A DNA stretch of 53,627 nt from a virus (taxonomy: Duplodnaviria; Caudoviricetes), in the IMG/VR virus record IMGVR_UViG_3300033407_000965, positions 1 to 53,627 of that record, one strand, 5' to 3'. Shown piece by piece: positions 11,025-49,313 of the stretch (position 1 is its first letter; every line of letters starts with the position of its first letter). Made by a program: the position numbers and the translations under genes. The notes beneath the pieces were generated by a model that was given only the letters and a program-made list of their open reading frames with translations, did no database searches and had not been told where the DNA came from.

Positions 11025-11230
11025 CGGAGCAGGAAAGGGACGAAGGGACGAAGGGACAGGGGGATCCTGCGGCGGCGCTGGCTGCGGAGCTGCGATGTCT
11101 GGCCGACATGCTCGAGGCCGACCCCCGGGGGGCGTGTGCGTTCGTGGTCGGGGTGGTGGAGCGGTTGGCCCGGCGGGCGACGTATGCCGCGGGAACTGAG
11201 CACGGAGAAAACGCGGAGGGCGGGGCATGA
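11021..11230 (+). CDS. Small hypothetical protein with an in-frame 8-bp repeat triplet near the N-terminus
   Basis: GGAGG RBS, ATGA coupling at both ends. Confidence 0.55.
   Translation: MTEQERDEGTKGQGDPAAALAAELRCLADMLEADPRGACAFVVGVVERLARRATYAAGTEHGENAEGGA
11034..11057 (+). repeat. 8-bp tandem array AAAGGGAC(GAAGGGAC)2
   Basis: Read directly; 24 bp, frame-neutral. Confidence 0.9.
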
Positions 11231-11445
11231 AAGGAGTCACGGCGGTGAAATCGGAAAAGGACTGGAAGGCCGAGAACGACGCCAACACGATCGCGGAGGC
11301 GGAGGCCATCAAGGCCGACAAGGAGCGGCTGGCCGGGGCGAAGAAAGCGGCCGCGAAAATGGCCAAGGAGCAGCGGGCCAGGGCCGACGGCTTGACCAAG
11401 CTCGCCGGGCGCAGGTCGGGTCGCGGTCGCTCGCGAAAACGCTGA
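11227..11445 (+). CDS. Small basic helical phage protein (EKDWKAENDANTIAEAEAIKADKERLAGAKK)
   Basis: RBS and ATGA coupling; directly upstream of terminase. Confidence 0.7.
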   Translation: MKGVTAVKSEKDWKAENDANTIAEAEAIKADKERLAGAKKAAAKMAKEQRARADGLTKLAGRRSGRGRSRKR

Positions 11446-11448
11446 TGC

Positions 11449-13149
11449 GTGAAGGTCCGGCTACCCAAACTCACCAAGCGGCAGCGCGAGCAGGTCCGCC
11501 GCCGGCGGGGATTGGACGCGGCGCAGCTGGATGAGTACCGGCGCTGCGCGCCCACGCGCGGGGCCTCGGGCTTCTTCTACTGGCTCCAGCACTTCTGCGT
11601 CATCTACGACTACGAGAAGAAGCGGCCGGTCAAGTTCGATCCCTTCGCCGGCCAGCGGCGCTTGATCCCCGACCTGGCCACGGGCGTGTGGCTGGTGATC
11701 CTGAAGGGGCGCCAGCTTGGGGTTACCTGGCTGATCGCGGCCTGGGCCCTGTACAACATCACGTTCCGAAGCACGTACAACGTCTCGGTGGTCTTTCAGC
11801 AGCTCGAGTACGCGTACGACTTCATCTGGCGCATCAAGTACATGTACGAGCGGCTGCCCCAGTGGCAGCGGAAGGCGATCACCGACTCGAACAAGCGTAC
11901 CCTCGGCTGGCGGGCGGACGGCAGCGATTGCCGCGTGCGGGCGTTCGCCGGTTCCCCGCGGGCCGGCCGGTCGCTGACCGGGGACTTGATCGTGCTGGAC
12001 GAGGCCAGCCGGATCCCGTACCTCGCGGACGTCATGCAGGCCCTCGAGCCGACGATCGAGGTCGGCAGCGGCCAGTTCATCCAGCTTTCGACGTCGGCCG
12101 GGCCGCAGGGGATCTTCTACGAGGTCTGGCAGGAGACGTACGGGGACTACGGCGAGCTGCTGGACGAGCGGGGCGTCGGGCCCTCGGGCTTCAAGCCGGT
12201 GTTCCTGCACTGGTCGGAGCGGCGGGGCCGGGACCACGAATGGTACGCCCGCGAGAAACGCCGCCTGGACCGCATCAGCCCGGTGGCGATGAAGCAGGAG
12301 CATCCCGACAACCCGCAGGAGGCGTTCGAGTTCGCCGCGGGGCGGGTGTATCCCCTGTTCACGCGCGAGCGCTGCATCGGCGACATCGAGATCCCGACGA
12401 CGGGCGAGCGCTACCGGGCGATCGACTGGGGTCAGTCGGCGTCGGCCCAAGTGTGCTTGTGGCTCGCGCATGTGCCTGGCCCGCCGGGGGTTCTCGTGTC
12501 GCCGAAGTGCCCCAACACGATCCGGGAGTTTTTCGCGTACCGCTACGACGACGAGCGCCCGGGCGAGGTCCTCAAAGTCGACGATCACTGCCCGGACGCG
12601 GTGCGCTACGCGGTGGTCACCTTCCGGCTGACCGGGCTGGTCTACGTGTATCGGGAGCTCTACATCAAGGATTCCGTGGCCCGCGGCTGGAACCCCATGA
12701 CCGAAATCGCGGAGATCCACGAGCTGTCCGGGTGGGAGCGGGCGGAGCCCAAGGAGAGCTACGCCTCGTGGGTGCGGGGCCGCCGCGGGGAGGCCTTCGA
12801 GGGGACCGTGGCAGACCGTTCCTGGCCGAAGATGATCGCCCTGTTCAACCTCCACGACCTCTACGTGCGGCCCCACGAGCCGATCCGTGGGAAAAAAGGC
12901 AAGAAGGGGCTGTTGACAGACCCGCCGCTGCGCGAGACAAAGGAGGGGATACGGCTGGTCAGCGCCTTGATCGAGGGGAGTGCGTGCCTGGACAGGTTGG
13001 TGGACGTGACGCGTGATGCGCAGGCGCTGACGCTACTGGCCGACCACGAGGGCCGGTCGACCCCGGGCGTGTCGCACAGTCTCAGTCACACCGCTCTGCT
13101 CGCCGCAGCGAAGCGACTCCGCAAGGCCAAGGCAAGGAGGACGCCATGA
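11449..13149 (+). CDS. terL: Terminase large subunit
   Basis: Walker A ILKGRQLGVTW, Walker B LIVLDEA, coupling motif LSTS, nuclease motifs AIDWG and DDHCPDAVRY. Confidence 0.93.
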   Translation: MKVRLPKLTKRQREQVRRRRGLDAAQLDEYRRCAPTRGASGFFYWLQHFCVIYDYEKKRPVKFDPFAGQRRLIPDLATGVWLVILKGRQLGVTWLIAAWALYNITFRSTYNVSVVFQQLEYAYDFIWRIKYMYERLPQWQRKAITDSNKRTLGWRADGSDCRVRAFAGSPRAGRSLTGDLIVLDEASRIPYLADVMQALEPTIEVGSGQFIQLSTSAGPQGIFYEVWQETYGDYGELLDERGVGPSGFKPVFLHWSERRGRDHEWYAREKRRLDRISPVAMKQEHPDNPQEAFEFAAGRVYPLFTRERCIGDIEIPTTGERYRAIDWGQSASAQVCLWLAHVPGPPGVLVSPKCPNTIREFFAYRYDDERPGEVLKVDDHCPDAVRYAVVTFRLTGLVYVYRELYIKDSVARGWNPMTEIAEIHELSGWERAEPKESYASWVRGRRGEAFEGTVADRSWPKMIALFNLHDLYVRPHEPIRGKKGKKGLLTDPPLRETKEGIRLVSALIEGSACLDRLVDVTRDAQALTLLADHEGRSTPGVSHSLSHTALLAAAKRLRKAKARRTP

Positions 13150-15433: not shown

Positions 15434-15499
15434 CAGGAGCTGGCCGCCCGGAATCGCGGCCGGGCGGCATGCGGCGCGCGTCACCGCGCTGCGCCAGTG

Positions 15500-15535
15500 A
15501 CGGGGCGCGGCCTTGATCGGTTCGCGCCCCGTTTT
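15500..15535 (+). terminator. Hairpin with short U tract directly upstream of the portal RBS
   Basis: ACGGGGCGCG (15500-15509) pairs with CGCGCCCCGT (15523-15532), followed by TTT. Confidence 0.4.
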
Positions 15536-15547
15536 CGTGGAGGCGAC

Positions 15548-17797
15548 GTGGTCCGGGATCGACGCGGTGATGTGGGTGACGCCAAGCCGATCTACGAGAT
15601 CGACTGGCGCAAGCCGGAGGCGATCCCGGACGTGGACCTCGTGGCCCTCGTCGAGACGCAGTACCGCGCCGGCAAGCAGCGCCGCTACGGCTGGGAGGCG
15701 CAGGCCGCGGAGCAGCTCGCCTGGGCGCGCGGCAACCAGCACCTGGTCTGGTCGCACGACGTGCGAGACCTGGTGCGGGAGGTGTTCGAGGAGAAGCCGC
15801 TGGAGTTTCGCAATCCGGTGGTGATTCCGAAGCTCAAGGGGGTCGTGCTCGGGTATCTGGGGATGACCATCGGGCACGCCCGGCCGAGCTGGATCGTGCA
15901 GCCGGCGACGCGGGACGACGACGACGTGGCCTCTGCGAACGTGTTGGGCAAGGTGCTGCACTGGTACTGGACCAAGGGCGGTGACCGAGGAACGCTGATG
16001 AAGTTGATCGACGGGCTGTGGATGGTCTTCTGCACCGGCGTGGTGTTCGCCAAGCCGACGTGGGACCCCACCCTCGGCGAGACCGACCGCTTCACCGCGG
16101 AAACGCTTCTCTCCGCGGGCGAGACGGTGGAGTCGGACAGTCAGCGGAAGAAGCTGTTGGACCGCTTCCGGCAGTATGTCCGGGGCTTTGGGCGGAAGAT
16201 GAGCGACGAGCAGGAGGACCTGGAGCTGCCGCGGGGCGACCTGGTGGTCGACTTCATTTCGGGGTTCGACATCACCGAGCCGCGGAACGTCCAGAACGTC
16301 AACGGCGCGCCGTGGATGATGGAGTCGCGGTTCCGATCCATCGAGCACCTGACCGAGCGTTACGGCGAAGCCGCGGACGAGGTCCAGCCGGACGAGGACA
16401 GCGAGGCCTACGACGCCCGCCGGCAGGAGCAGTACCGCGGCTGGCGGGATTACACCGGCAACGAGCCGGACGCGGTGCCCAGCGAGGAGGCTTTGACCCA
16501 CGAGTTCTGGCGGCCGCGGTCGCGCAGCGCGCCGGTCGGGGCGAAAATCGTGGTCGCCGACGGCAAGGTGCTCCACAAGGGGCCGCACCCCTACCTGCAC
16601 GGGCGGCTGCCGTTCATTCGGATCACCGAAATGCCCGACCCGGAGCACTTTAGGCCGGGCTGCTCCGTGCGCGACGCGATGTCGCTCCAGCGGGCCAAGA
16701 ATCATCAACGCAGCCAGCTCCACGGGCACCTCGAAACGACCGTCGATCCGAGGATCCTGGTCGAGAAGGAAGCGGGCATCCCGGACGACGCCTTCCTCAA
16801 GGGCCCGCGGCTGATCCCCTGCAAGGACAAGGACGCGGTCAGGGCCTGGGAGCCGCCCCATCCCCCGGCGTACATGGGCGACCTCGACCGGATGAACGAC
16901 CGCGACTTCGAGGACGTCACCGGGCTGCATCGGTCCAGCTACGGCGACACCGAGTTCGCTGGGCAGAGCGGCCGACACGCCCAGATGCTCCGGGAGGGGG
17001 ACGCCCGCCGGCTGTCGGTGGTGCGGCTCGGGCTGGAGCTTTCGATGGCCGCGGCCGGCCAGCAGATGGCGTGGCTGCTGTGGGAGTTCGTCAGCGTCGA
17101 GCGGAGCCTGACCATCACCGGCCCCAGCCGTCGGAGCGAGGTCGTGACGTTCAAAGGTCGCGAGGGCCTGAGCAGGAACGCGCCGTTCGGTCCGCACGAG
17201 TTCAACGTGGAGGTGCAGCTGGGCACCGAGCCGGACATGAACACCGTGCTGGGCAAGATCGAGCTGCTCAGCCGGTACAGGATCATCAACCCGGAGCGCG
17301 AGCAGGACCGGCTGATGGTGATGCGCTGGCTGGGTGAGCAGGTGCCCTCGGAGACAGACGAGGCGGCGAGCCACCGCGTGCTGGCCAGCGACGAGAACCG
17401 CCGCATGGCCCAGGGCGAAGCGCTGCGCGCCAACTACGGGGATGACGACCCCGTGCACCTGGAGGAGCACCTCCAGTTCACGACCACACCGGACTACCGG
17501 CGGGCCGCGGCGGGCAACACGGACGTCGAGCTCATCATGCAGATGCACCTGCGGCACCACATGGTACAGCGGGCGGACAAGGAGTTTCGGCCGATGGCGA
17601 TCGCCAAGGCGGTCCAGGCTCGGCTGGTGAGGGAATACGGGCTGGTCAGCGGCGGGAGCGCCCCCCAAGGGACCGGGGCGGCGGGAGCGACGCCGCGGCC
17701 GGCGGGCGGTCCCATGGCGCCCGGGCCCGGTGGCGCGGGAGGCGGCGGCAACGGCCGCATTGTCCCGCGGGCGCCGGCGGGCGCGAGGAGATTCTGA
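15548..17797 (+). CDS. Portal protein (P22/podovirus-like)
   Basis: About 750 aa between terminase and scaffold; VQPATRDDDDVASA, PYLHGRLPF, EDVTGLH...G...SG motifs; GGAGG RBS before GTG 15548. Confidence 0.88.
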   Translation: MVRDRRGDVGDAKPIYEIDWRKPEAIPDVDLVALVETQYRAGKQRRYGWEAQAAEQLAWARGNQHLVWSHDVRDLVREVFEEKPLEFRNPVVIPKLKGVVLGYLGMTIGHARPSWIVQPATRDDDDVASANVLGKVLHWYWTKGGDRGTLMKLIDGLWMVFCTGVVFAKPTWDPTLGETDRFTAETLLSAGETVESDSQRKKLLDRFRQYVRGFGRKMSDEQEDLELPRGDLVVDFISGFDITEPRNVQNVNGAPWMMESRFRSIEHLTERYGEAADEVQPDEDSEAYDARRQEQYRGWRDYTGNEPDAVPSEEALTHEFWRPRSRSAPVGAKIVVADGKVLHKGPHPYLHGRLPFIRITEMPDPEHFRPGCSVRDAMSLQRAKNHQRSQLHGHLETTVDPRILVEKEAGIPDDAFLKGPRLIPCKDKDAVRAWEPPHPPAYMGDLDRMNDRDFEDVTGLHRSSYGDTEFAGQSGRHAQMLREGDARRLSVVRLGLELSMAAAGQQMAWLLWEFVSVERSLTITGPSRRSEVVTFKGREGLSRNAPFGPHEFNVEVQLGTEPDMNTVLGKIELLSRYRIINPEREQDRLMVMRWLGEQVPSETDEAASHRVLASDENRRMAQGEALRANYGDDDPVHLEEHLQFTTTPDYRRAAAGNTDVELIMQMHLRHHMVQRADKEFRPMAIAKAVQARLVREYGLVSGGSAPQGTGAAGATPRPAGGPMAPGPGGAGGGGNGRIVPRAPAGARRF

Positions 17798-18688: not shown

Positions 18689-18832
18689 CCGCCGGCGATA
18701 CGGCCCGCCGCGGGTAGGCCGCCCGCGGTATGGCGCAGTCGAGCAAGGCGCCAGGCAGCCTGGTCGGCTGTCGCCGGGCCCTACACTCAGGAATTGGAGC
18801 GCCTGGGCTCCGAACGACGGAGGTTCGGAGTC

Positions 18833-20092
18833 ATGCCAGCCAACCGGCAGAATCAGTCAGACCTCTTGCGCAAGGTCTACCTGCCCTACATGCGGGTGCA
18901 GTTCAACCTCAAGAGCATCCTGCTCCAGAGGCTGATGCGCAACACGGAGCAGTATTCCGAGGGCGAGGAGCTGTCGCTGCCGCTGCACGTCGGGCAGTCC
19001 GGCGGGTGGGGCTGGAACAGTGCCGGCAAGCTGCCGGCGGCCAGCCACCAGAAGGTCAAGCGCCACAAGTACAACTACCACCGAATGTACGGCCGCATCG
19101 AGATCGACGGGCCGCACGTGGAGGGGGCGAAGAAGTCCTACGCCGCCGAACGGAGGCCGTACGACTTCGAGACCAAGAACCTTATCAAGCAGATGCGCCA
19201 CGGCCTCAACCACGATCTCTTCGGCAGCGGGTCCGGCTCGGTGGCGAGCGTGGGGTCCGCAGCGAGCGCCACGCAGTTCACCGTCGGGCCGGCGGGGGCC
19301 CCCGACGTCCGCGGGCTGGTCGACGGGATGCGTATCGACGTACTGGACACCGCAACCGGGGCGGTCAACGGGGGGGTGAGCAACGCCGAGATCCGCTTCA
19401 ACTGGAAGACCGGGGTGGTCACCCTCAAGGATGGCGCGGTCTTCGCCGACTTCGGCGACGTGAACGCGAACCCCGGCAACTACACCGTGTACCGCGCGGG
19501 CTCGCGCAATGATGCGCTGATGGGTCTGGCCGGGATCATCAGCGAGATCAATCCGCCGACCGGGCCACTGGGCGGCGTCGACCGAACCGACCCCGACAAC
19601 GCCTTCTGGACCGCCAACGTCTTCGGCAACGGCGGCGCCCCGCGGGTGCCGGACCTGGTTTACGTGGACGAGGCGGTCAACGTGGTCGAGCAGCGGGCGA
19701 GCGTGAGCACCTCCCTGATCCTGTGCTCCCACGCGGTGTGGACGATTCTCGCCGACCAACTGGTCCAGGACAAGCGGTACGCCGGTACCCAGACGACGCT
19801 CAACGGCTGGTGCCGGGCGCTGATGTTCCCGGGGCCCAACGGCGACATCCCCATCGTGCGCGACAAGCACTGCCCGCGGGACAAGATGTTCGGACTCGCG
19901 GAGGAGGCGTTCACGCTCTACCAGAACGACGAGGGCAAGTGGATGGACCAGGACGGCTCCATCCTCCACCGTGTCGAAGGCATGCACGCCTATGAGGCGG
20001 CCTGGTTCCGCTTCCTCCAGCTGTGCTGCGACGCGCCGAACGGGCAGTGGGTGATTGAGGACCTTGACACCGCGCTGCCGATCGCGGCGTAG
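18833..20092 (+). CDS. Major capsid protein
   Basis: 419 aa after scaffold; LLRKVYLP...GEELSLPLHVG, LMGLAGII...GGVDRT, IPIVRDKHCP motifs typical of HK97-fold coat proteins. Confidence 0.88.
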   Translation: MPANRQNQSDLLRKVYLPYMRVQFNLKSILLQRLMRNTEQYSEGEELSLPLHVGQSGGWGWNSAGKLPAASHQKVKRHKYNYHRMYGRIEIDGPHVEGAKKSYAAERRPYDFETKNLIKQMRHGLNHDLFGSGSGSVASVGSAASATQFTVGPAGAPDVRGLVDGMRIDVLDTATGAVNGGVSNAEIRFNWKTGVVTLKDGAVFADFGDVNANPGNYTVYRAGSRNDALMGLAGIISEINPPTGPLGGVDRTDPDNAFWTANVFGNGGAPRVPDLVYVDEAVNVVEQRASVSTSLILCSHAVWTILADQLVQDKRYAGTQTTLNGWCRALMFPGPNGDIPIVRDKHCPRDKMFGLAEEAFTLYQNDEGKWMDQDGSILHRVEGMHAYEAAWFRFLQLCCDAPNGQWVIEDLDTALPIAA

Positions 20093-44605: not shown

Positions 44606-45954
44606 GCAGGACAGCGAAGAAACTCGCGGTCAACGGCGGTCCGCGAACGGTCTACGGCATGTTCCCCACGCCGTGGGGGCGGATCAGGAAAATGGGCCAG
44701 ATGACGGCCGACCTGGTTCGGATGTGGCCGCGTCTGGCACGTGGCAAGACGACCATCGGTGACGGGTCGAAGATCGTCAAGAGGTTCGAGGAGGCGTTCA
44801 AGGCGCTGACCGGGGCCGAGTATGCGTTGGCGATGAACAACGGGACGGCCACGTTGCACAGCGCGTACTTTAGCGTGGGCGTCGGGCCGGGCGACGAGGT
44901 CATCGTTCCGGCGTACACGTGGCACGCTTCCGCGACGCCGGTGTTGCAATGCGGCGCGACGCCGGTGTTCTGCGACATCGACCCGCGCACGTTGACGGCC
45001 GATCCGGAGGACATCGAGCGGCGGATCACGCCGCGTACGAAGGCGATCTGCGTCGTTCACGTGTGGGGCAATCCTGCGGAGATGGACCGCATCGCCGACA
45101 TCGCGCGGCGGCACAAGCTGGCGATCGTGGAAGACGCCTCGCATGCGCACGGCGCGGTATACAAGGGCAAGGCCGTCGGCATGTGGGGCGACGTGGGGTG
45201 CTTCAGCCTCAACGCCGGAAAGGCGGTGGACGGCGGGGAGGCGGGCGTGGCGATCACCAACGACCCGACGCTGTTCGACCGGATGCTGGTGTTCGGACAC
45301 TTCGGGCGGATCGCCCGCGGCCAGGCGAACGCGACGTTCGACATGGGCGACATGAGCCTGGGGCACAAGTTCCGGCCCCACCAGTTGGCGATGCAGCTTG
45401 CGTATTCGTCGCTGAAGCGCCTGCCAGGATTGAACGAACGGTGCACGCGGGCATGGGATACGCTTTGTCGAGAGATCGAGGGCGTGCCGGGTATCCGTGC
45501 CCCGCTGACGCTTCCCGGCGCGGTGCGCGGCGGGTTCCAGTCGTTCACGCTCGTTTACGAAGGCGCCTCGCACGGCGGGCTCAACACGGAACAGTTTGTT
45601 CGGGCGGTTCGCAAGGAAGGTGCGAAGCTCACCGTGGATCGGTACTCACAGGTCAACTTCACCTACGGTATGCTGCACAAGGCCCCCCTGTTCACGACAT
45701 TGCACCGCCCTGCCGTCGGCGGGCTATGCGGTGACCCGACCCGGCCCTGGGAGGAAATGGTCAACGACGTGACGCTCCCCGAGTGCGAGCGCCTTTGCCA
45801 GCAGTTGGTGAGCTTCCCGCGGCTGGACGGAGCGTCGACGAGATACGTCCGGGCCTGCGGGCGCGCGATCCGCAAGGTGCTCCTGGCAACCGTTCCGCAC
45901 GCCTCGGCCGAACGTTCCGCCATGGCACGTACGCCGGAACTCGCCCACGCCTAG
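44602..45954 (+). CDS. DegT/DnrJ/EryC1/StrS-family PLP aminotransferase
   Basis: NNGTATLH, GVGPGDEVIVP, VEDASHAHG, FSLNAGK (PLP lysine); ATGA coupling. Confidence 0.93.
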   Translation: MSRTAKKLAVNGGPRTVYGMFPTPWGRIRKMGQMTADLVRMWPRLARGKTTIGDGSKIVKRFEEAFKALTGAEYALAMNNGTATLHSAYFSVGVGPGDEVIVPAYTWHASATPVLQCGATPVFCDIDPRTLTADPEDIERRITPRTKAICVVHVWGNPAEMDRIADIARRHKLAIVEDASHAHGAVYKGKAVGMWGDVGCFSLNAGKAVDGGEAGVAITNDPTLFDRMLVFGHFGRIARGQANATFDMGDMSLGHKFRPHQLAMQLAYSSLKRLPGLNERCTRAWDTLCREIEGVPGIRAPLTLPGAVRGGFQSFTLVYEGASHGGLNTEQFVRAVRKEGAKLTVDRYSQVNFTYGMLHKAPLFTTLHRPAVGGLCGDPTRPWEEMVNDVTLPECERLCQQLVSFPRLDGASTRYVRACGRAIRKVLLATVPHASAERSAMARTPELAHA

Positions 45955-47711: not shown

Positions 47712-47889
47712 TTCGATTCGCTTTCCGCCATTTGTCCGCCTCGCTAAGCTCCAGGCAACGCCAGCCGTAGAGGCGCAGCATTCGTTTCAAGAGAATCTTC
47801 AGCCGGTACACCGGCGCGCGCCCCAAGCGGTCGGGGCCGCGCGGCTCGGGTTTAATGACGAGAATCAAGTTGTGTTGCGCGTCGGTCAT
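47701..47889 (-). CDS. Small hypothetical protein (…APVYRLKILLKRMLRLYGWRC)
   Basis: ATGA coupling to the helicase stop. Confidence 0.55.
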   Translation of the reverse strand: MTDAQHNLILVIKPEPRGPDRLGRAPVYRLKILLKRMLRLYGWRCLELSEADKWRKANRNDR

Positions 47890-49313
47890 CCGCACGCCTC
47901 GTCCAGGAGCCCGATACCGTGATACATAACCCGACGGGTTCGCGGATGCTTTTCGGGTAACGGTGCAAACCCGTGTTCAACCAGCGCCTCGCGGAATTCC
48001 CGCTTACTGGGCCGGTCTCGTTCGCCGGAACGCTCTGCCCACCTGGTGAACGTGTCCCACAGTTCCACGCCGTCAGCCCTGTGGGCGTCCCCGGTCAGGC
48101 AACACTCGCTAACGAACCCGGCCATAACATCGGAATCGTTGCGGTACGTCTCTGTCGCTGCAATCACCTCCGGCGGCTCGTTAAGACCGGATCGCCGCCA
48201 AGCCATCGTGCCTTCAACGATCCATCGAAGTATGCCAGCCCTCTCACGCCGCAGCTTCTCCGGCAGTTCCGTGTCCTGCTCGTGTGCGGGAATCTGAACG
48301 TTGAAGGGCCACAATCTAACCCGTCGCCATATTCCAGAGTCCGTGCCTCGGATACGGGGCCGGTGGTTCGTGGCGACAAAAAGCTTGTGCGTCGGCGCGA
48401 ACTCGAAAAAGTTCTGCCGCATGAATCTGGCCTTAACGTGGTCGCCGCCGGTCAGCCGCTTCACCATCTCCTCGTCAAGTCGGCTTCCCTGTCCGCTTTC
48501 GAGGCAGGCGACGAATCGTCTGCCGAATAGGTCTGCGAGTTCAGCCGGATGCGGTTCGTGCCGTCGCAGCATCAGCAGGCGCGGCGGGGCGACCATCGCA
48601 TAGTCACCGAGCGCGTCGAGTATCGCGCTGAGGAACGTGGACTTGCCGTTCGCACCGTTCCCCCAAAGTACGTGGAGGACGTGTTCGCGGATGTGTCCCG
48701 TGGCGGCGTACCCGACCGCGCGCTGGGCGAACAGTCGAAGTGATTCACTGGGCAGAACACGCTCCAGGAACCGGTCGAACGTCGGACACTTAGCGCCGAT
48801 GTCATACGCCACCGGACTCATCTTCGTGAGTAGGTCTTCACGGCAATGGGCGCGAAGCTGCGCCGTCCGTAAGTCGAGCACGCCGTTATCCAGGTTCAAC
48901 AGGTCGGGGCTCGTGTCCAGGTCGGAAGCGCGAACCGGAATCGGCGGTTCGCTCTCGGCCAGGCGGATCAGGTTCGTTATGTGGGCGGCCGTTTCACTTT
49001 TGAGGGCGAACGAGGCCAGCTTTCGGCGTTCGTCCGCGTCCTCGATCCGGGCCGCTTCGCGCAACACGTCCCGGATCGTCTTCTTGGCCCGGCGAAATAT
49101 CTCGCCGGTATCGTCCACTTGCCAGAGCTTTCCGCGCCAAATGAGCCAGCCTAAAGAGCTACAGAATCGCAAGTCCTTGCCGTGCTTGGCCACGAGGCGC
49201 TCGGCGAGCCCAAGCTCGGTCAGATGTTCCCCGGACCGCGGGTGTGCAGGTTCATCTACATCGAGCGGTTCGGCGCGGTAGTAGTCGGCGGAGTATTTAG
49301 GCGGCGCGCTCAA
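47886..49313 (-). CDS. P4/poxvirus-D5-family SF3 helicase (primase-associated), no primase domain recognised
   Basis: D5_N-type LLNLDNGVLDL, Walker A GNGANGKST, VKRLTGGD.VKARFM, ATNHRP, GIWRRVRLWPF. Confidence 0.92.
   Translation of the reverse strand: MSAPPKYSADYYRAEPLDVDEPAHPRSGEHLTELGLAERLVAKHGKDLRFCSSLGWLIWRGKLWQVDDTGEIFRRAKKTIRDVLREAARIEDADERRKLASFALKSETAAHITNLIRLAESEPPIPVRASDLDTSPDLLNLDNGVLDLRTAQLRAHCREDLLTKMSPVAYDIGAKCPTFDRFLERVLPSESLRLFAQRAVGYAATGHIREHVLHVLWGNGANGKSTFLSAILDALGDYAMVAPPRLLMLRRHEPHPAELADLFGRRFVACLESGQGSRLDEEMVKRLTGGDHVKARFMRQNFFEFAPTHKLFVATNHRPRIRGTDSGIWRRVRLWPFNVQIPAHEQDTELPEKLRRERAGILRWIVEGTMAWRRSGLNEPPEVIAATETYRNDSDVMAGFVSECCLTGDAHRADGVELWDTFTRWAERSGERDRPSKREFREALVEHGFAPLPEKHPRTRRVMYHGIGLLDEACG

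Follow-up and report, generated by a model that had tools for sequence, protein, structure and literature searches.

Tailed phages and herpesviruses share the large terminase subunit (TerL) gene as a hallmark. The nuclease domain of every described TerL is closed by a last strand, a short terminase hairpin and a DH..D helix that bears the third catalytic carboxylate (canonical block order A-B-C), and the last catalytic residues of canonical TerLs, like those of RuvC, lie on a C-terminal helix. TerL nucleases are described as RuvC-like (PMC5389553, available portion), and the available portion of a 2026 review (PMC13595956) describes the domain as structurally almost indistinguishable across viruses; mutational data for the SPP1 residues D266, D321, H400 and D403 are given in the accessible part of PMC3592435. 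Here we describe a phage TerL that is likely a working enzyme with a non-circularly permuted RNase-H/RuvC-like nuclease, in which the blocks run A-C-B. No description of a terminase nuclease in this order was found in the papers searched, in Pfam or in NCBIfam. The protein was compared with solved Terminase_3C/Terminase_6C-type TerLs, namely D6E (5oe8), G20c (5m1f), P74-26 (5tge), SPP1 G2P (2wc9) and P22 gp2 (4dkw).

The gene lies in a 53,627-nt stretch of IMG/VR record IMGVR_UViG_3300033407_000965 (the window), which is recorded as a provirus with a completeness rating of 100%. Its product matches PHROG phrog_2 'terminase large subunit' (E 3e-30). The frame at 11449-13149 is the real one (GC3 91.7%), in agreement with a sequence-only reading that had judged it intact. 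Genes for a portal protein and a major head protein follow downstream (Table 1) and give the gene a head-morphogenesis setting; a temperate tailed phage probably uses its product as a functional large terminase. The named genomes that encode full-length relatives are all Planctomycetota metagenome-assembled genomes, and the host is therefore probably a planctomycete. Relatives come from soil and sediment metagenomes, and the 24 runs listed as carrying the sequence include no RNA run.

Table 1 Features of the TerL gene and its neighbours in the window
Feature	Position (nt)	Strand	Details and basis
Large terminase (TerL) gene	11449..13149	+	566 aa, GTG start, stop included; ORF list
N-terminal ATPase domain, T4/Terminase_6N type, residues ~40-300	11566..12348	+	Pfam, PDB profile alignment, pLDDT >90
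Deviant Walker A, K86-G-R-Q-L-G-V-T93	11704..11727	+	Conservation in 70 sequences
Walker B and catalytic glutamate, L-I-V-L-D184-E185	11986..12003	+	ASCE-type motif
Segment A: beta1 (YRAID326WG), loop, beta2 (VCLW338LAHV)	12382..12474	+	Catalytic D326 (codon 12424-12426); DSSP strands 320-326 and 334-342
Linker P-G-P-P-G (5 residues), beta2 to transposed segment C	12475..12489	+	Translation; hhalign
Segment C (normally C-terminal): strand VLV, helix C354-PNTIREFFAY, short hairpin, catalytic helix D379-H380-C-P-D383-AVRY	12490..12624	+	D383 codon 12595-12597; Pfam, D6E and P0077 alignments
Linker R-L-T-G (4 residues), catalytic helix to beta3	12625..12636	+	Translation
Segment B: beta3 (LVYVYRE403LY), helix, SGW hairpin, beta4 (TVAD456RS), helix, beta5, long helix alphaC (KEG500IRLV)	12637..12984	+	D456 codon 12814-12816; hhalign, D6E, VIA-align
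New C-terminal helical tail, residues 513-566, basic end	12985..13146	+	Helices 523-535 and 545-564, pLDDT 63-85
Portal protein gene (context)	15497..17797	+	phrog_156 portal E 2.4e-19; Pfam P22_portal 37.6 bits, above the cutoff of 26.1
Major head protein gene (context)	18794..20092	+	phrog_14242 major head protein E 1.6e-48

The N-terminal domain is an ordinary T4/Terminase_6N-type motor domain. The T4 gp17 ATPase was recovered both as a PDB profile match (E 7.8e-22, profile 14-283) and by Foldseek with the full-length model (3cpe, E 2.3e-16). Pfam Terminase_6N (PF03237) scores 20.1 bits at residues 84-206, just below its gathering cutoff of 22, and a precomputed PF03237 match is present in many family members. 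Across 70 sequences, K86, R88 and G91 of the Walker A motif are invariant and T93 is conserved in at least 90%. The P-loop keeps a conserved lysine, placed at the first position of the motif and not before the threonine, an arrangement that we take to be akin to the lambda gpA-type P-loop. The catalytic glutamate E185 is invariant in both sets of sequences analyzed (n=70 and n=139).

In the nuclease domain, the normally terminal block follows directly on A, and B comes last. The sequence-only reading had located this normally terminal segment at about 12487-12618, and the translation bears these coordinates out, with nt 12487 the first base of G347 and nt 12618 the last of V390; ADRS and EGIRLV do come later, as it had stated, with no second DH..D motif over the 54 further residues to the protein end. 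The swap of order in its motif layout also holds, but the layout needs one correction, as a tight hairpin is normally made by LW (beta2) together with YVYRELY (beta3). It is therefore best to describe the rearrangement as a C-terminal sub-structure placed within the turn of the beta2-beta3 hairpin, which is equivalent to block B being shifted behind C. The resulting order is neither of the cyclic rotations B-C-A and C-A-B; only the sub-block B-C is rotated, and the permutation is therefore non-circular for the domain as a whole. Segment A aligns to residues 241-285 of the canonical TerL P0077 and 233-279 of the D6E chain, and segment C to residues 373-430 of the 459 in P0077. The first linker is aligned by hhalign with the canonical 'G-r-P-r' loop that precedes the same strand. 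Both junctions are tight across the family, with 2-5 residues between the HMM envelopes of A and C in 131/179 proteins and between those of C and B in 156/179. The tail (residues 506-566) shows no similarity by hhalign to segment C or to canonical TerLs (Prob 0.1-0.2).

Non-collinear matches to canonical TerLs were found by BLASTP, hhalign and HMMER, none of which left the catalytic helix as the last element of the domain, and no collinear alignment arose. With BLASTP against P0077, query residues 197-343 correspond to subject 143-287 and query 346-395 to subject 379-433, so that two blocks adjoining in the query lie 92 residues apart in the subject. When a profile of the permuted family was aligned by hhalign to a profile of nine canonical TerLs, residues 297-392 matched 241-430 across a single interruption of ~89 residues (Prob 99.8, E 9.2e-30), into which a second match, of residues 396-508 to P0077 289-370 (Prob 93.4, E 2.6e-7), fits exactly. 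In the solved D6E chain (430 residues), HMMER finds segments A, B and C at positions 233-279, 311-362 and 367-417, respectively, although the profile carries them as A, C, B; the i-E is 2.1e-5 for segment C and a weak 8 for segment B. The homology of block B to its canonical counterpart is accordingly weak when taken alone, and BLASTP returned nothing for it at E<=50. Pfam Terminase_3C (PF17288) matches residues 349-389 of 566 only, at profile positions 108-153 of 155 (16.2 bits, below the gathering cutoff of 26.7), four PHROG TerL families match residues 348-395 at or near their profile ends, and the solved TerLs 5oe8, 4dkw and 2wbn match the segment C piece at their own C-termini. Terminase_6C (PF17289) has no match in the 566-aa protein, which matches 0 NCBIfam families. 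The A-C-B order lies far beyond chance.

The same order is found by segment HMMs in 179 of 212 collected proteins, and identity of the A-C-B homologs falls to ~22% (alignment A3). A phmmer search with the nuclease part against 1.84 billion representatives recovered 162 clusters at E<=1e-3, including 107 at E<=1e-10; family sequences come from jgi, ena, lgn and ncbi, where members are labelled 'hypothetical protein'. A further profile search for permuted members (A4) gave 87 matches, mostly already in the set, and one candidate (P0164, 729 aa, 9 stretches) was discarded as low-complexity noise. Searching 50,697 phage records with the whole protein by tblastn matched 2,074 records, but in no case did the match extend over 80% of the query; among the 30 matches listed, each ends by residue 324 and spans only the ATPase part. 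The ESM Atlas gave a feature-level resemblance only, to terminase nuclease clusters (score 0.94).

The rearrangement probably arose once, in a T4-type TerL lineage, and its likely origin is a duplication of B-C followed by loss of the first B and the last C, or an equivalent transposition. No relic of a second C copy is found behind block B in the hhalign comparison of the tail, which leaves the duplication intermediate without direct support. An unlikely alternative is that the A-C-B order had several origins, or that recombination of nuclease modules spreads it, so that it would not mark one lineage. This would fit the ATPase-domain tree, which requires two changes of the permuted label and not one, and in which the canonical-order proteins L079, L080 and P0213 (order read by eye) are grouped by the best split with all 180 permuted rows. 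However, the AU test does not reject a single clade of permuted members (p 0.28), the label is strongly clustered (0/500 shuffles as low), and the junction sequences PGPPG and LTG are common across the family, all of which favour the single origin. When 10 ATPase-domain relatives from IMG/VR were searched with Pfam, a nuclease model was recognised in 1/10 (TerL_nuclease in L024).

AlphaFold2 models were built without templates for the full-length protein (pLDDT 91.3, pTM 0.86) and for the nuclease alone (pLDDT 91.9, pTM 0.81), with pLDDT of 93-98 in segment C and across both junctions. VIA-align of the nuclease model against 48,161 PDB representatives gave 5oe8_A as the best match (model 1-204 on chain 245-364, rmsd 2.3 Å), with a Z of 8.8 that is little above the 7-8 reachable by unrelated models and with 116 of ~204 residues aligned. 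Seven of the eight best representatives are TerLs or TerL nucleases (2wc9, Z 7.7; 4dkw, Z 7.6), and 113-117 residues of the A+B part fit those of solved TerL nucleases at 2.3-3.4 Å. The 5oe8_A alignment covers A and B and stops just before that chain's segment C, as do all such TerL alignments, and no representative aligned more than 128 residues of the model. At a moderate Z, the predicted model thus contains the RNase-H-like fold core. Foldseek with the nuclease-only model returned nothing at E<=1e-3 (best 3.6e-3, TMq 0.31). Since Pfam, NCBIfam and nuclease-only Foldseek recognise the domain poorly or not at all, collinear profiles and sequential structure searches can under-call it.

Mean-field DCA (180 sequences, effective 171, 206 columns) yielded 15 pairs above the maximum of four column-shuffled controls, which do not control for phylogeny. 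Among them, pairs 339-388 and 324-388 set the catalytic helix on beta2 and beta1, pairs 349-397 and 349-399 set the C strand beside beta3, and pairs 348-508, 386-500 and 366-498 set segment C on alphaC. Coevolution places segment C against beta1, beta2, beta3 and alphaC, and the covarying positions point to E403 on beta3 as a probable neighbour of the DDH motif. Segment C would then occupy its canonical spatial position, its strand beside beta3, where the last strand of canonical TerLs presumably also lies; the strand order of canonical TerL nucleases is not stated in the available portions of PMC5389553, PMC5389665 and PMC3592435.

We regard it as improbable that, within a real permutation, segment C is not canonical in cis and the active site is instead completed in trans by a domain-swapped oligomer, or that the architecture is a different one. 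Linkers of five and four residues are indeed very short, sequential aligners match A and B only, and TerLs act as ring oligomers (PMC7617512, available part). Nevertheless, the monomer model is confident across segment C and both linkers, and the coevolving pairs fit one compact domain, although coevolution does not distinguish contacts within a chain from those between chains. Five residues are also enough to bridge the first junction if the C strand adjoins beta3, as the pairs involving position 349 suggest.

Conservation bears on whether the permuted nuclease is active. Among 180 domains, the three acidic positions on beta1, beta4 and the last helix are retained almost without exception (D326 in 180/180, D383 and D456 each in 177/180), consistent with the earlier statement that the acidic residues are intact; R386 (176/180), G500 (174/180) and C354 (173/180) are similarly conserved, and H380 (153/180) and E403 (146/180) less so. 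Inteins interrupt the DDH..D catalytic motif in P0074 and P0193, where they score above Pfam cutoffs, and in P0096 and P0205, where they score below. Such elements tend to occupy essential conserved sites. A nuclease that has decayed and lost catalysis, and that serves only in a structural or DNA-binding role as in phi29-type packaging ATPases, would account for Pfam nuclease models falling below threshold and for Foldseek barely recognising the domain, and phi29 is described as retaining an inactive nuclease domain in the available portion of the 2026 review (PMC13595956). This is very unlikely here, as the three aspartates persist despite the low identity within the family, inteins have inserted in the catalytic motif, and the phage is integrated as a provirus with no sign of protein-primed unit-length genomes.

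Contigs assembled from individual runs span the region unbroken. Those of X4 and X5 cover 12200-13149 in one piece with 0 differences, those of X6 and X7 bridge the A-C junction and that of X6 the C-B junction, and no joints or indels were seen across the region in the four runs, so that misassembly was not found. Although the window is a metagenome-derived provirus record and its source sample may be among the best-matching runs, it is scarcely credible that misassembly or chimerism of one contig produced the order, given these contigs, an order shared by proteins from many datasets and sources, and a homolog divergence that excludes a single pipeline error.

The functional, non-circular permutation proposed in the sequence-only reading is therefore supported directly as to order, by the non-collinear alignments, the unbroken contigs and the family, and indirectly as to function, where catalytic conservation, inteins, the predicted fold and coevolution suggest an active enzyme. 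We propose that the last strand, the terminase hairpin and the DH..D helix have been spliced into the beta2-beta3 turn through linkers of 4-5 residues, and that the mechanism would be unchanged: the enzyme probably cuts DNA by two-metal catalysis with D326 on beta1, D456 on beta4, and D383 with H380 on the catalytic helix. The chain end has moved away from this helix; the chain instead runs through alphaC into the new basic helical tail of ~54 residues, which might, speculatively, take on the docking to the portal that is ascribed to the C-terminal tails of TerLs. A doubtful extension of this idea is that the rewiring uncoupled the portal-docking tail from the active-site helix, with the new tail anchored on alphaC, and that the nuclease 'steric block' during packaging and the headful release signal then pass through a different part of the domain.

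A large natural lineage that keeps its catalytic residues in another order would indicate that the RNase-H-like terminase fold tolerates non-circular permutation in vivo. The lineage also offers work on protein evolution a clean case, since relatives of canonical order are available. If the doubtful extension holds, an essential viral enzyme would here provide one of the few documented examples of a non-circular permutation that is viable and persists across the sequence divergence of the family. Should the relocated chain terminus alter portal docking, the family bears on the regulation of headful cleavage, and an uncoupled tail would constitute a natural experiment on the gating of terminase cleavage.

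Compared with the solved canonical TerL nucleases, the domain carries the same motifs (DxG on beta1, (A)DxS on beta4, the GI..V helix, C.N.I.E..Y and DH..DA.RY), and by motif alignment its catalytic residues correspond to the four SPP1 positions named above. It differs in that the catalytic helix is internal, ~45 residues replace the beta2-beta3 turn, and the tail follows alphaC. T4 gp17 (3cpe, 2o0h) is the best match to the ATPase domain and has the same two-domain plan (2o0j, rmsd 2.9 Å over 272 columns by Foldseek), with SRQLGKT as its Walker A versus KGRQLGVT here. The gp17 nuclease is collinear, and its VIA-align match to the model is confined to chain 371-510, ending before the C-terminal catalytic residue, which we take to be D542.

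Among TerLs of canonical order, P0077-P0082 and the P0080 family come closest in blocks A and C; they are annotated as 'terminase large subunit' in Planctomycetota and Phycisphaerales records and carry Terminase_6C, Terminase_3C or Terminase_6N Pfam matches. These proteins measure 398-459 aa, keep B between the other two blocks, and are 41-47% identical to the permuted TerL in segment C and 31-49% in the A region. A homolog search recovered 467 relatives at E<=1e-20; those listed (120) share 66-100% identity with P0080, which heads the query alignment, and the family was set aside as too redundant for a canonical coevolution comparison. More distantly, RuvC/RNase-H-like nucleases share the beta1-beta2-beta3-alpha-beta4-alpha-beta5 core and the probable two-metal chemistry, and Thermus thermophilus RuvC (4ld0) aligns to the model with a Z of 5.1.

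The 566-aa product of the ORF studied here is a large terminase (TerL), encoded in a Caudoviricetes provirus record (IMG/VR; 53,627 bases, completeness rating 100%, G+C 68%) upstream of P22-like portal and major head protein genes. PHROG family phrog_2 ("terminase large subunit") matches residues 36-344 (E 3e-30), a profile built from the family finds the T4 gp17 ATPase (E 7.8e-22), and Foldseek matches the full-length AlphaFold2 model to T4 gp17 (3cpe, E 2.3e-16). The ATPase motifs are intact: the P-loop, though deviant, has K86, R88 and G91 invariant, as is E185 following Walker B. The Walker A motif carries its invariant lysine in the first position family-wide, and a hydrophobic residue stands where T4 gp17 has its P-loop lysine (SRQLGKT); we take the motif to resemble the lambda gpA-type P-loop. 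The small ORF preceding the TerL gene has no match in PHROG or Pfam; its position would suit a small terminase or a DNA-binding partner.

Genes in the window and segments of the TerL product (residues number the 566-aa protein)
Feature	Position	Strand	Content
72-aa ORF	11227-11445	+	Lys/Ala/Arg-rich; ends 4 nt upstream of TerL start
TerL ORF	11449-13149	+	566 aa; GTG start; GC3 91.7%
Walker A	11704-11727 (residues 86-93)		KGRQLGVT
Block A	residues 312-342	+	YRAID326WG...VCLW338LAHV
Linker A-C	between blocks A and C	+	PGPPG
Block C	residues 348-392	+	VLVSPKC354PNTIREFFAYRYDDERPGEVLKVDDH380CPD383AVRYAVVTF
Linker C-B	between blocks C and B	+	RLTG
Block B	residues 397-512	+	LVYVYRE403LY ... TVAD456RS ... 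EG500IRLVSALIEGS
P22-like portal gene	15497-17797	+	downstream of TerL
Major head protein gene	18794-20092	+	downstream of TerL
3,104-aa ORF	30013-39327	+	Eco57I/N6_Mtase N6-adenine methylase (~690-880); ResIII, Helicase_C (~1373-1926)
Oxidoreductase and aminotransferase genes	43352-45954	+	GFO/IDH/MocA oxidoreductase; DegT/DnrJ/EryC1 aminotransferase (E 2.6e-75)
Primase-helicase	47889-49313	-	D5_N (E 1.5e-32) / DUF5906 / Pox_D5

Elsewhere in the window, the 3,104-aa methylase-helicase ORF lies downstream of the head genes, a position that, we presume, recalls giant DarB-like virion proteins, and the primase-helicase on the opposite strand is probably the element's replication gene. The oxidoreductase and aminotransferase, where G+C falls from ~69% to 64-66%, lie inside the provirus record and represent host flank or, alternatively, sugar-modification genes carried by the phage.

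TerL nuclease domains canonically run A-B-C, where A is beta1-beta2, B extends from beta3 to alphaC, and C comprises a strand, a helix, a hairpin and the catalytic helix. The sequence-only reading had placed the normally terminal segment between VCLWLA and LVYVYRELY, followed by ADRS and EGIRLV and no second DH..D motif; the translation bears this out, reading A-C-B with 54 further residues after block B that lack a second DH..D. In Pfam, PHROG and solved TerLs, it is the segment corresponding to block C that ordinarily closes a terminase nuclease domain. Pfam Terminase_3C covers residues 349-389 only, at profile positions 108-153 of 155, with Pfam scores under threshold; four PHROG TerL families match residues 348-395 at or near their profile ends, and the block aligns with the C-termini of the solved TerLs of D6E (chain 367-417 of 430), P22 and SPP1. 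No model for a permuted nuclease was found in NCBIfam.

Non-collinear matches to canonical TerLs were found by BLASTP, hhalign and HMMER. Against P0077, a canonical-order TerL of 459 aa, BLASTP placed query 197-343 on 143-287 and query 346-395 on 379-433, so that pieces which adjoin in the query are separated by 92 residues in the subject. When a 70-sequence family profile was compared with nine canonical TerLs by hhalign, residues 297-392 matched 241-430 across a single ~89-residue gap (Prob 99.8, E 9.2e-30), and the alternative match, residues 396-508 on 289-370, filled that gap exactly (Prob 93.4, E 2.6e-7). The loop preceding the C strand moves along with it, PGPPG-VLV being aligned to canonical G-r-P-r-L-x-I. 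A 139-sequence HMMER profile run against PDB sequences located A at chain 233-279, B at 311-362 and C at 367-417 of the solved D6E TerL, whereas the profile itself runs A, C, B; pieces A and B are weak singly (i-E 2.8 and 8).

The A-C-B order is a family trait and not an artefact. An initial homologue search returned 75 mostly full-length proteins (query coverage 54-100%, identity 28-63%), and phmmer with the nuclease part against 1.84 billion cluster representatives matched 162 clusters at E<=1e-3, of which 107 reached E<=1e-10; the majority align as one stretch across A, C and B. Segment HMMs run on 212 collected proteins assigned the permuted order to 179: 148 as A-C-B, 29 with B in two pieces, and two as A-C-C-B, where an insertion splits C. 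The remainder comprised C-B (12; A undetected or sequence truncated), B only (three fragments), A then C directly (four; B below threshold), C only (two short fragments), one low-complexity protein with no block, and canonical order, either with A and C ~90 residues apart (nine) or with C alone at the C-terminus (two). Among 99 fetched loci, the A-C-B carriers were the window itself, two contigs from IMG/VR and four MAGs of Planctomycetota; Planctomycetota MAGs provide all four full-length matches among the 18 loci returned from one-genome-per-species GTDB contigs. As a check for local misassembly, per-run contigs from public soil and sediment metagenomes were found to cross the region unbroken. 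In run X4, and likewise in X5, a single contig covers all of 12200-13149 and shows 0 differences; the A-C and C-B junctions are both crossed by X6 pieces, and A-C also by an X7 piece. The contigs of these four runs showed neither joints nor indels, although near-identical holders could be the source samples.

Over 180 aligned nuclease domains, conservation is near complete for D326 (180/180), D383 and D456 (177/180 each), R386 (176/180), G500 (174/180) and C354 (173/180), and lower for H380 (153/180) and E403 (146/180). By motif alignment, the key residues correspond to SPP1 D266, D321, H400 and D403, substitutions of which impair pac cleavage (PMC3592435). Five homologues (P0074, P0193, P0096, P0205 and P0141) carry ~180-350-aa insertions located at, or immediately behind, the DDH..D motif of segment C; that of P0074 directly follows the H. 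Those of P0074 (Intein_splicing, 40.4 bits) and P0193 (Hint_2, 33.7 bits) pass Pfam cutoffs, those of P0096 and P0205 have intein/Hint scores under them, and that of P0141 has no Pfam match.

AlphaFold2 without templates yielded confident predictions for the full length (70-sequence alignment; mean pLDDT 91.3, pTM 0.86) and for residues 308-566 (139-sequence alignment; pLDDT 91.9, pTM 0.81), with 10-residue blocks at both junctions at pLDDT 93-98. In VIA-align against the PDB, the best match to the predicted nuclease was D6E TerL (5oe8_A; rmsd 2.3 Å over 116 residues) with Z 8.8, modestly over the tool's stated background of 7-8; model 1-204 aligned to chain 245-364, stopping just short of the chain's own segment C. 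SPP1 (Z 7.7, chain 243-363), P22 (7.6), HK97 (7.0) and G20c (6.7) followed. An independent scan of 48,161 PDB representatives gave the same ranking, with TerLs or TerL nucleases as seven of the top eight and no alignment longer than 128 residues. Within this representative set, A and B of the model together therefore have the canonical core, and no chain with A-C-B connectivity was found. Foldseek with the nuclease-only model (12370-13146) returned nothing at E<=1e-3 (best 3.6e-3); this null and the moderate Z 8.8 weaken the structural case. Annotation of the permuted family by collinear profiles and by sequential structure search appears to fall short. Family members are named "hypothetical protein" in their sources.

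Mean-field DCA (180 domains, 206 columns, effective 171 sequences) recovered 15 pairs above the maximum of four column-shuffled controls, which ignore phylogeny among the domains, and 10 of the 15 involve segment C. These pair the catalytic helix with beta2 and beta1 (339-388, 324-388), the C strand with beta3 (349-397, 349-399) and segment C with alphaC (348-508, 386-500, 366-498), or are internal to the segment (348-385, 360-380, 357-381). The other five include the core-strand links 338-448 (beta2 to beta4) and 402-448 (beta3 to beta4). Slightly under threshold lie the antiparallel beta2-beta3 register (341-396, 338-402, 336-404) and the beta4-beta5 pairs 453-473 and 455-473, as expected for the core. 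With a linker of five residues, the chain leaving beta2 can get to a strand alongside beta3 and hardly to one past beta5; we therefore infer that the sheet is ordered C-3-2-1-4-5, the catalytic helix lying over beta1 and beta2 with its N-terminal end at the active site.

ATPase-domain relatives in IMG/VR form two groups, 15 loci (three genome-contig, 12 IMG/VR) with block C at the C-terminus and 66 whose block order was beyond the segment HMMs; Pfam recognised a nuclease model in one of 10 sampled from the 66. A FastTree built from 258 ATPase domains has a branch (SH-like support 71) that keeps the 180 permuted rows all together on one side, along with three probable members and, read by eye, three canonical-order TerLs. 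On 79 rows, IQ-TREE needs two changes of the permuted label, and an AU test leaves a single permuted clade unrejected (p 0.28). The one-sided grouping and the AU result make it plausible that the order arose once, in a T4-type lineage. By the simplest route, B-C would have been duplicated and the first B and last C then lost; no relic of a second C copy was found in the window's TerL. The three canonical-order TerLs on the permuted side (loci L079, 245-2152, and L080, 1956-3599, and protein P0213) join an ATPase domain that groups with the permuted clade to a canonical-order nuclease with a different, ..HDD..-type last motif, a possible exchange of modules.

Together, the non-circular permutation of this terminase nuclease domain is real and conserved, and judged by sequence and model the permuted nuclease is very probably functional. 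The original reading of a functional non-circular permutation stands, on non-collinear alignments, a family of 179/212 proteins and catalytic aspartates kept in 177-180 of 180 domains. A search of open-access papers and preprints turned up no account of a TerL nuclease in permuted order, its "permutation" matches concerning genome ends; a 2026 terminase-structure review calls nuclease domains practically indistinguishable and holds no word starting "permut" (PMC13595956). The protein shares with ordinary TerLs its ATPase, its catalytic residues and, putatively, a RuvC-like two-metal mechanism, as outlined for such enzymes (PMC5389553, PMC7617512). Unlike them, it has the block order A-C-B, an internal catalytic helix and short terminase hairpin, and a new helical, basic tail of ~54 residues behind alphaC. 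Docking on the portal and a part in gating the nuclease have been proposed for the C-terminal tails of TerLs (PMC5389665), so the relocated chain terminus may, speculatively, matter.
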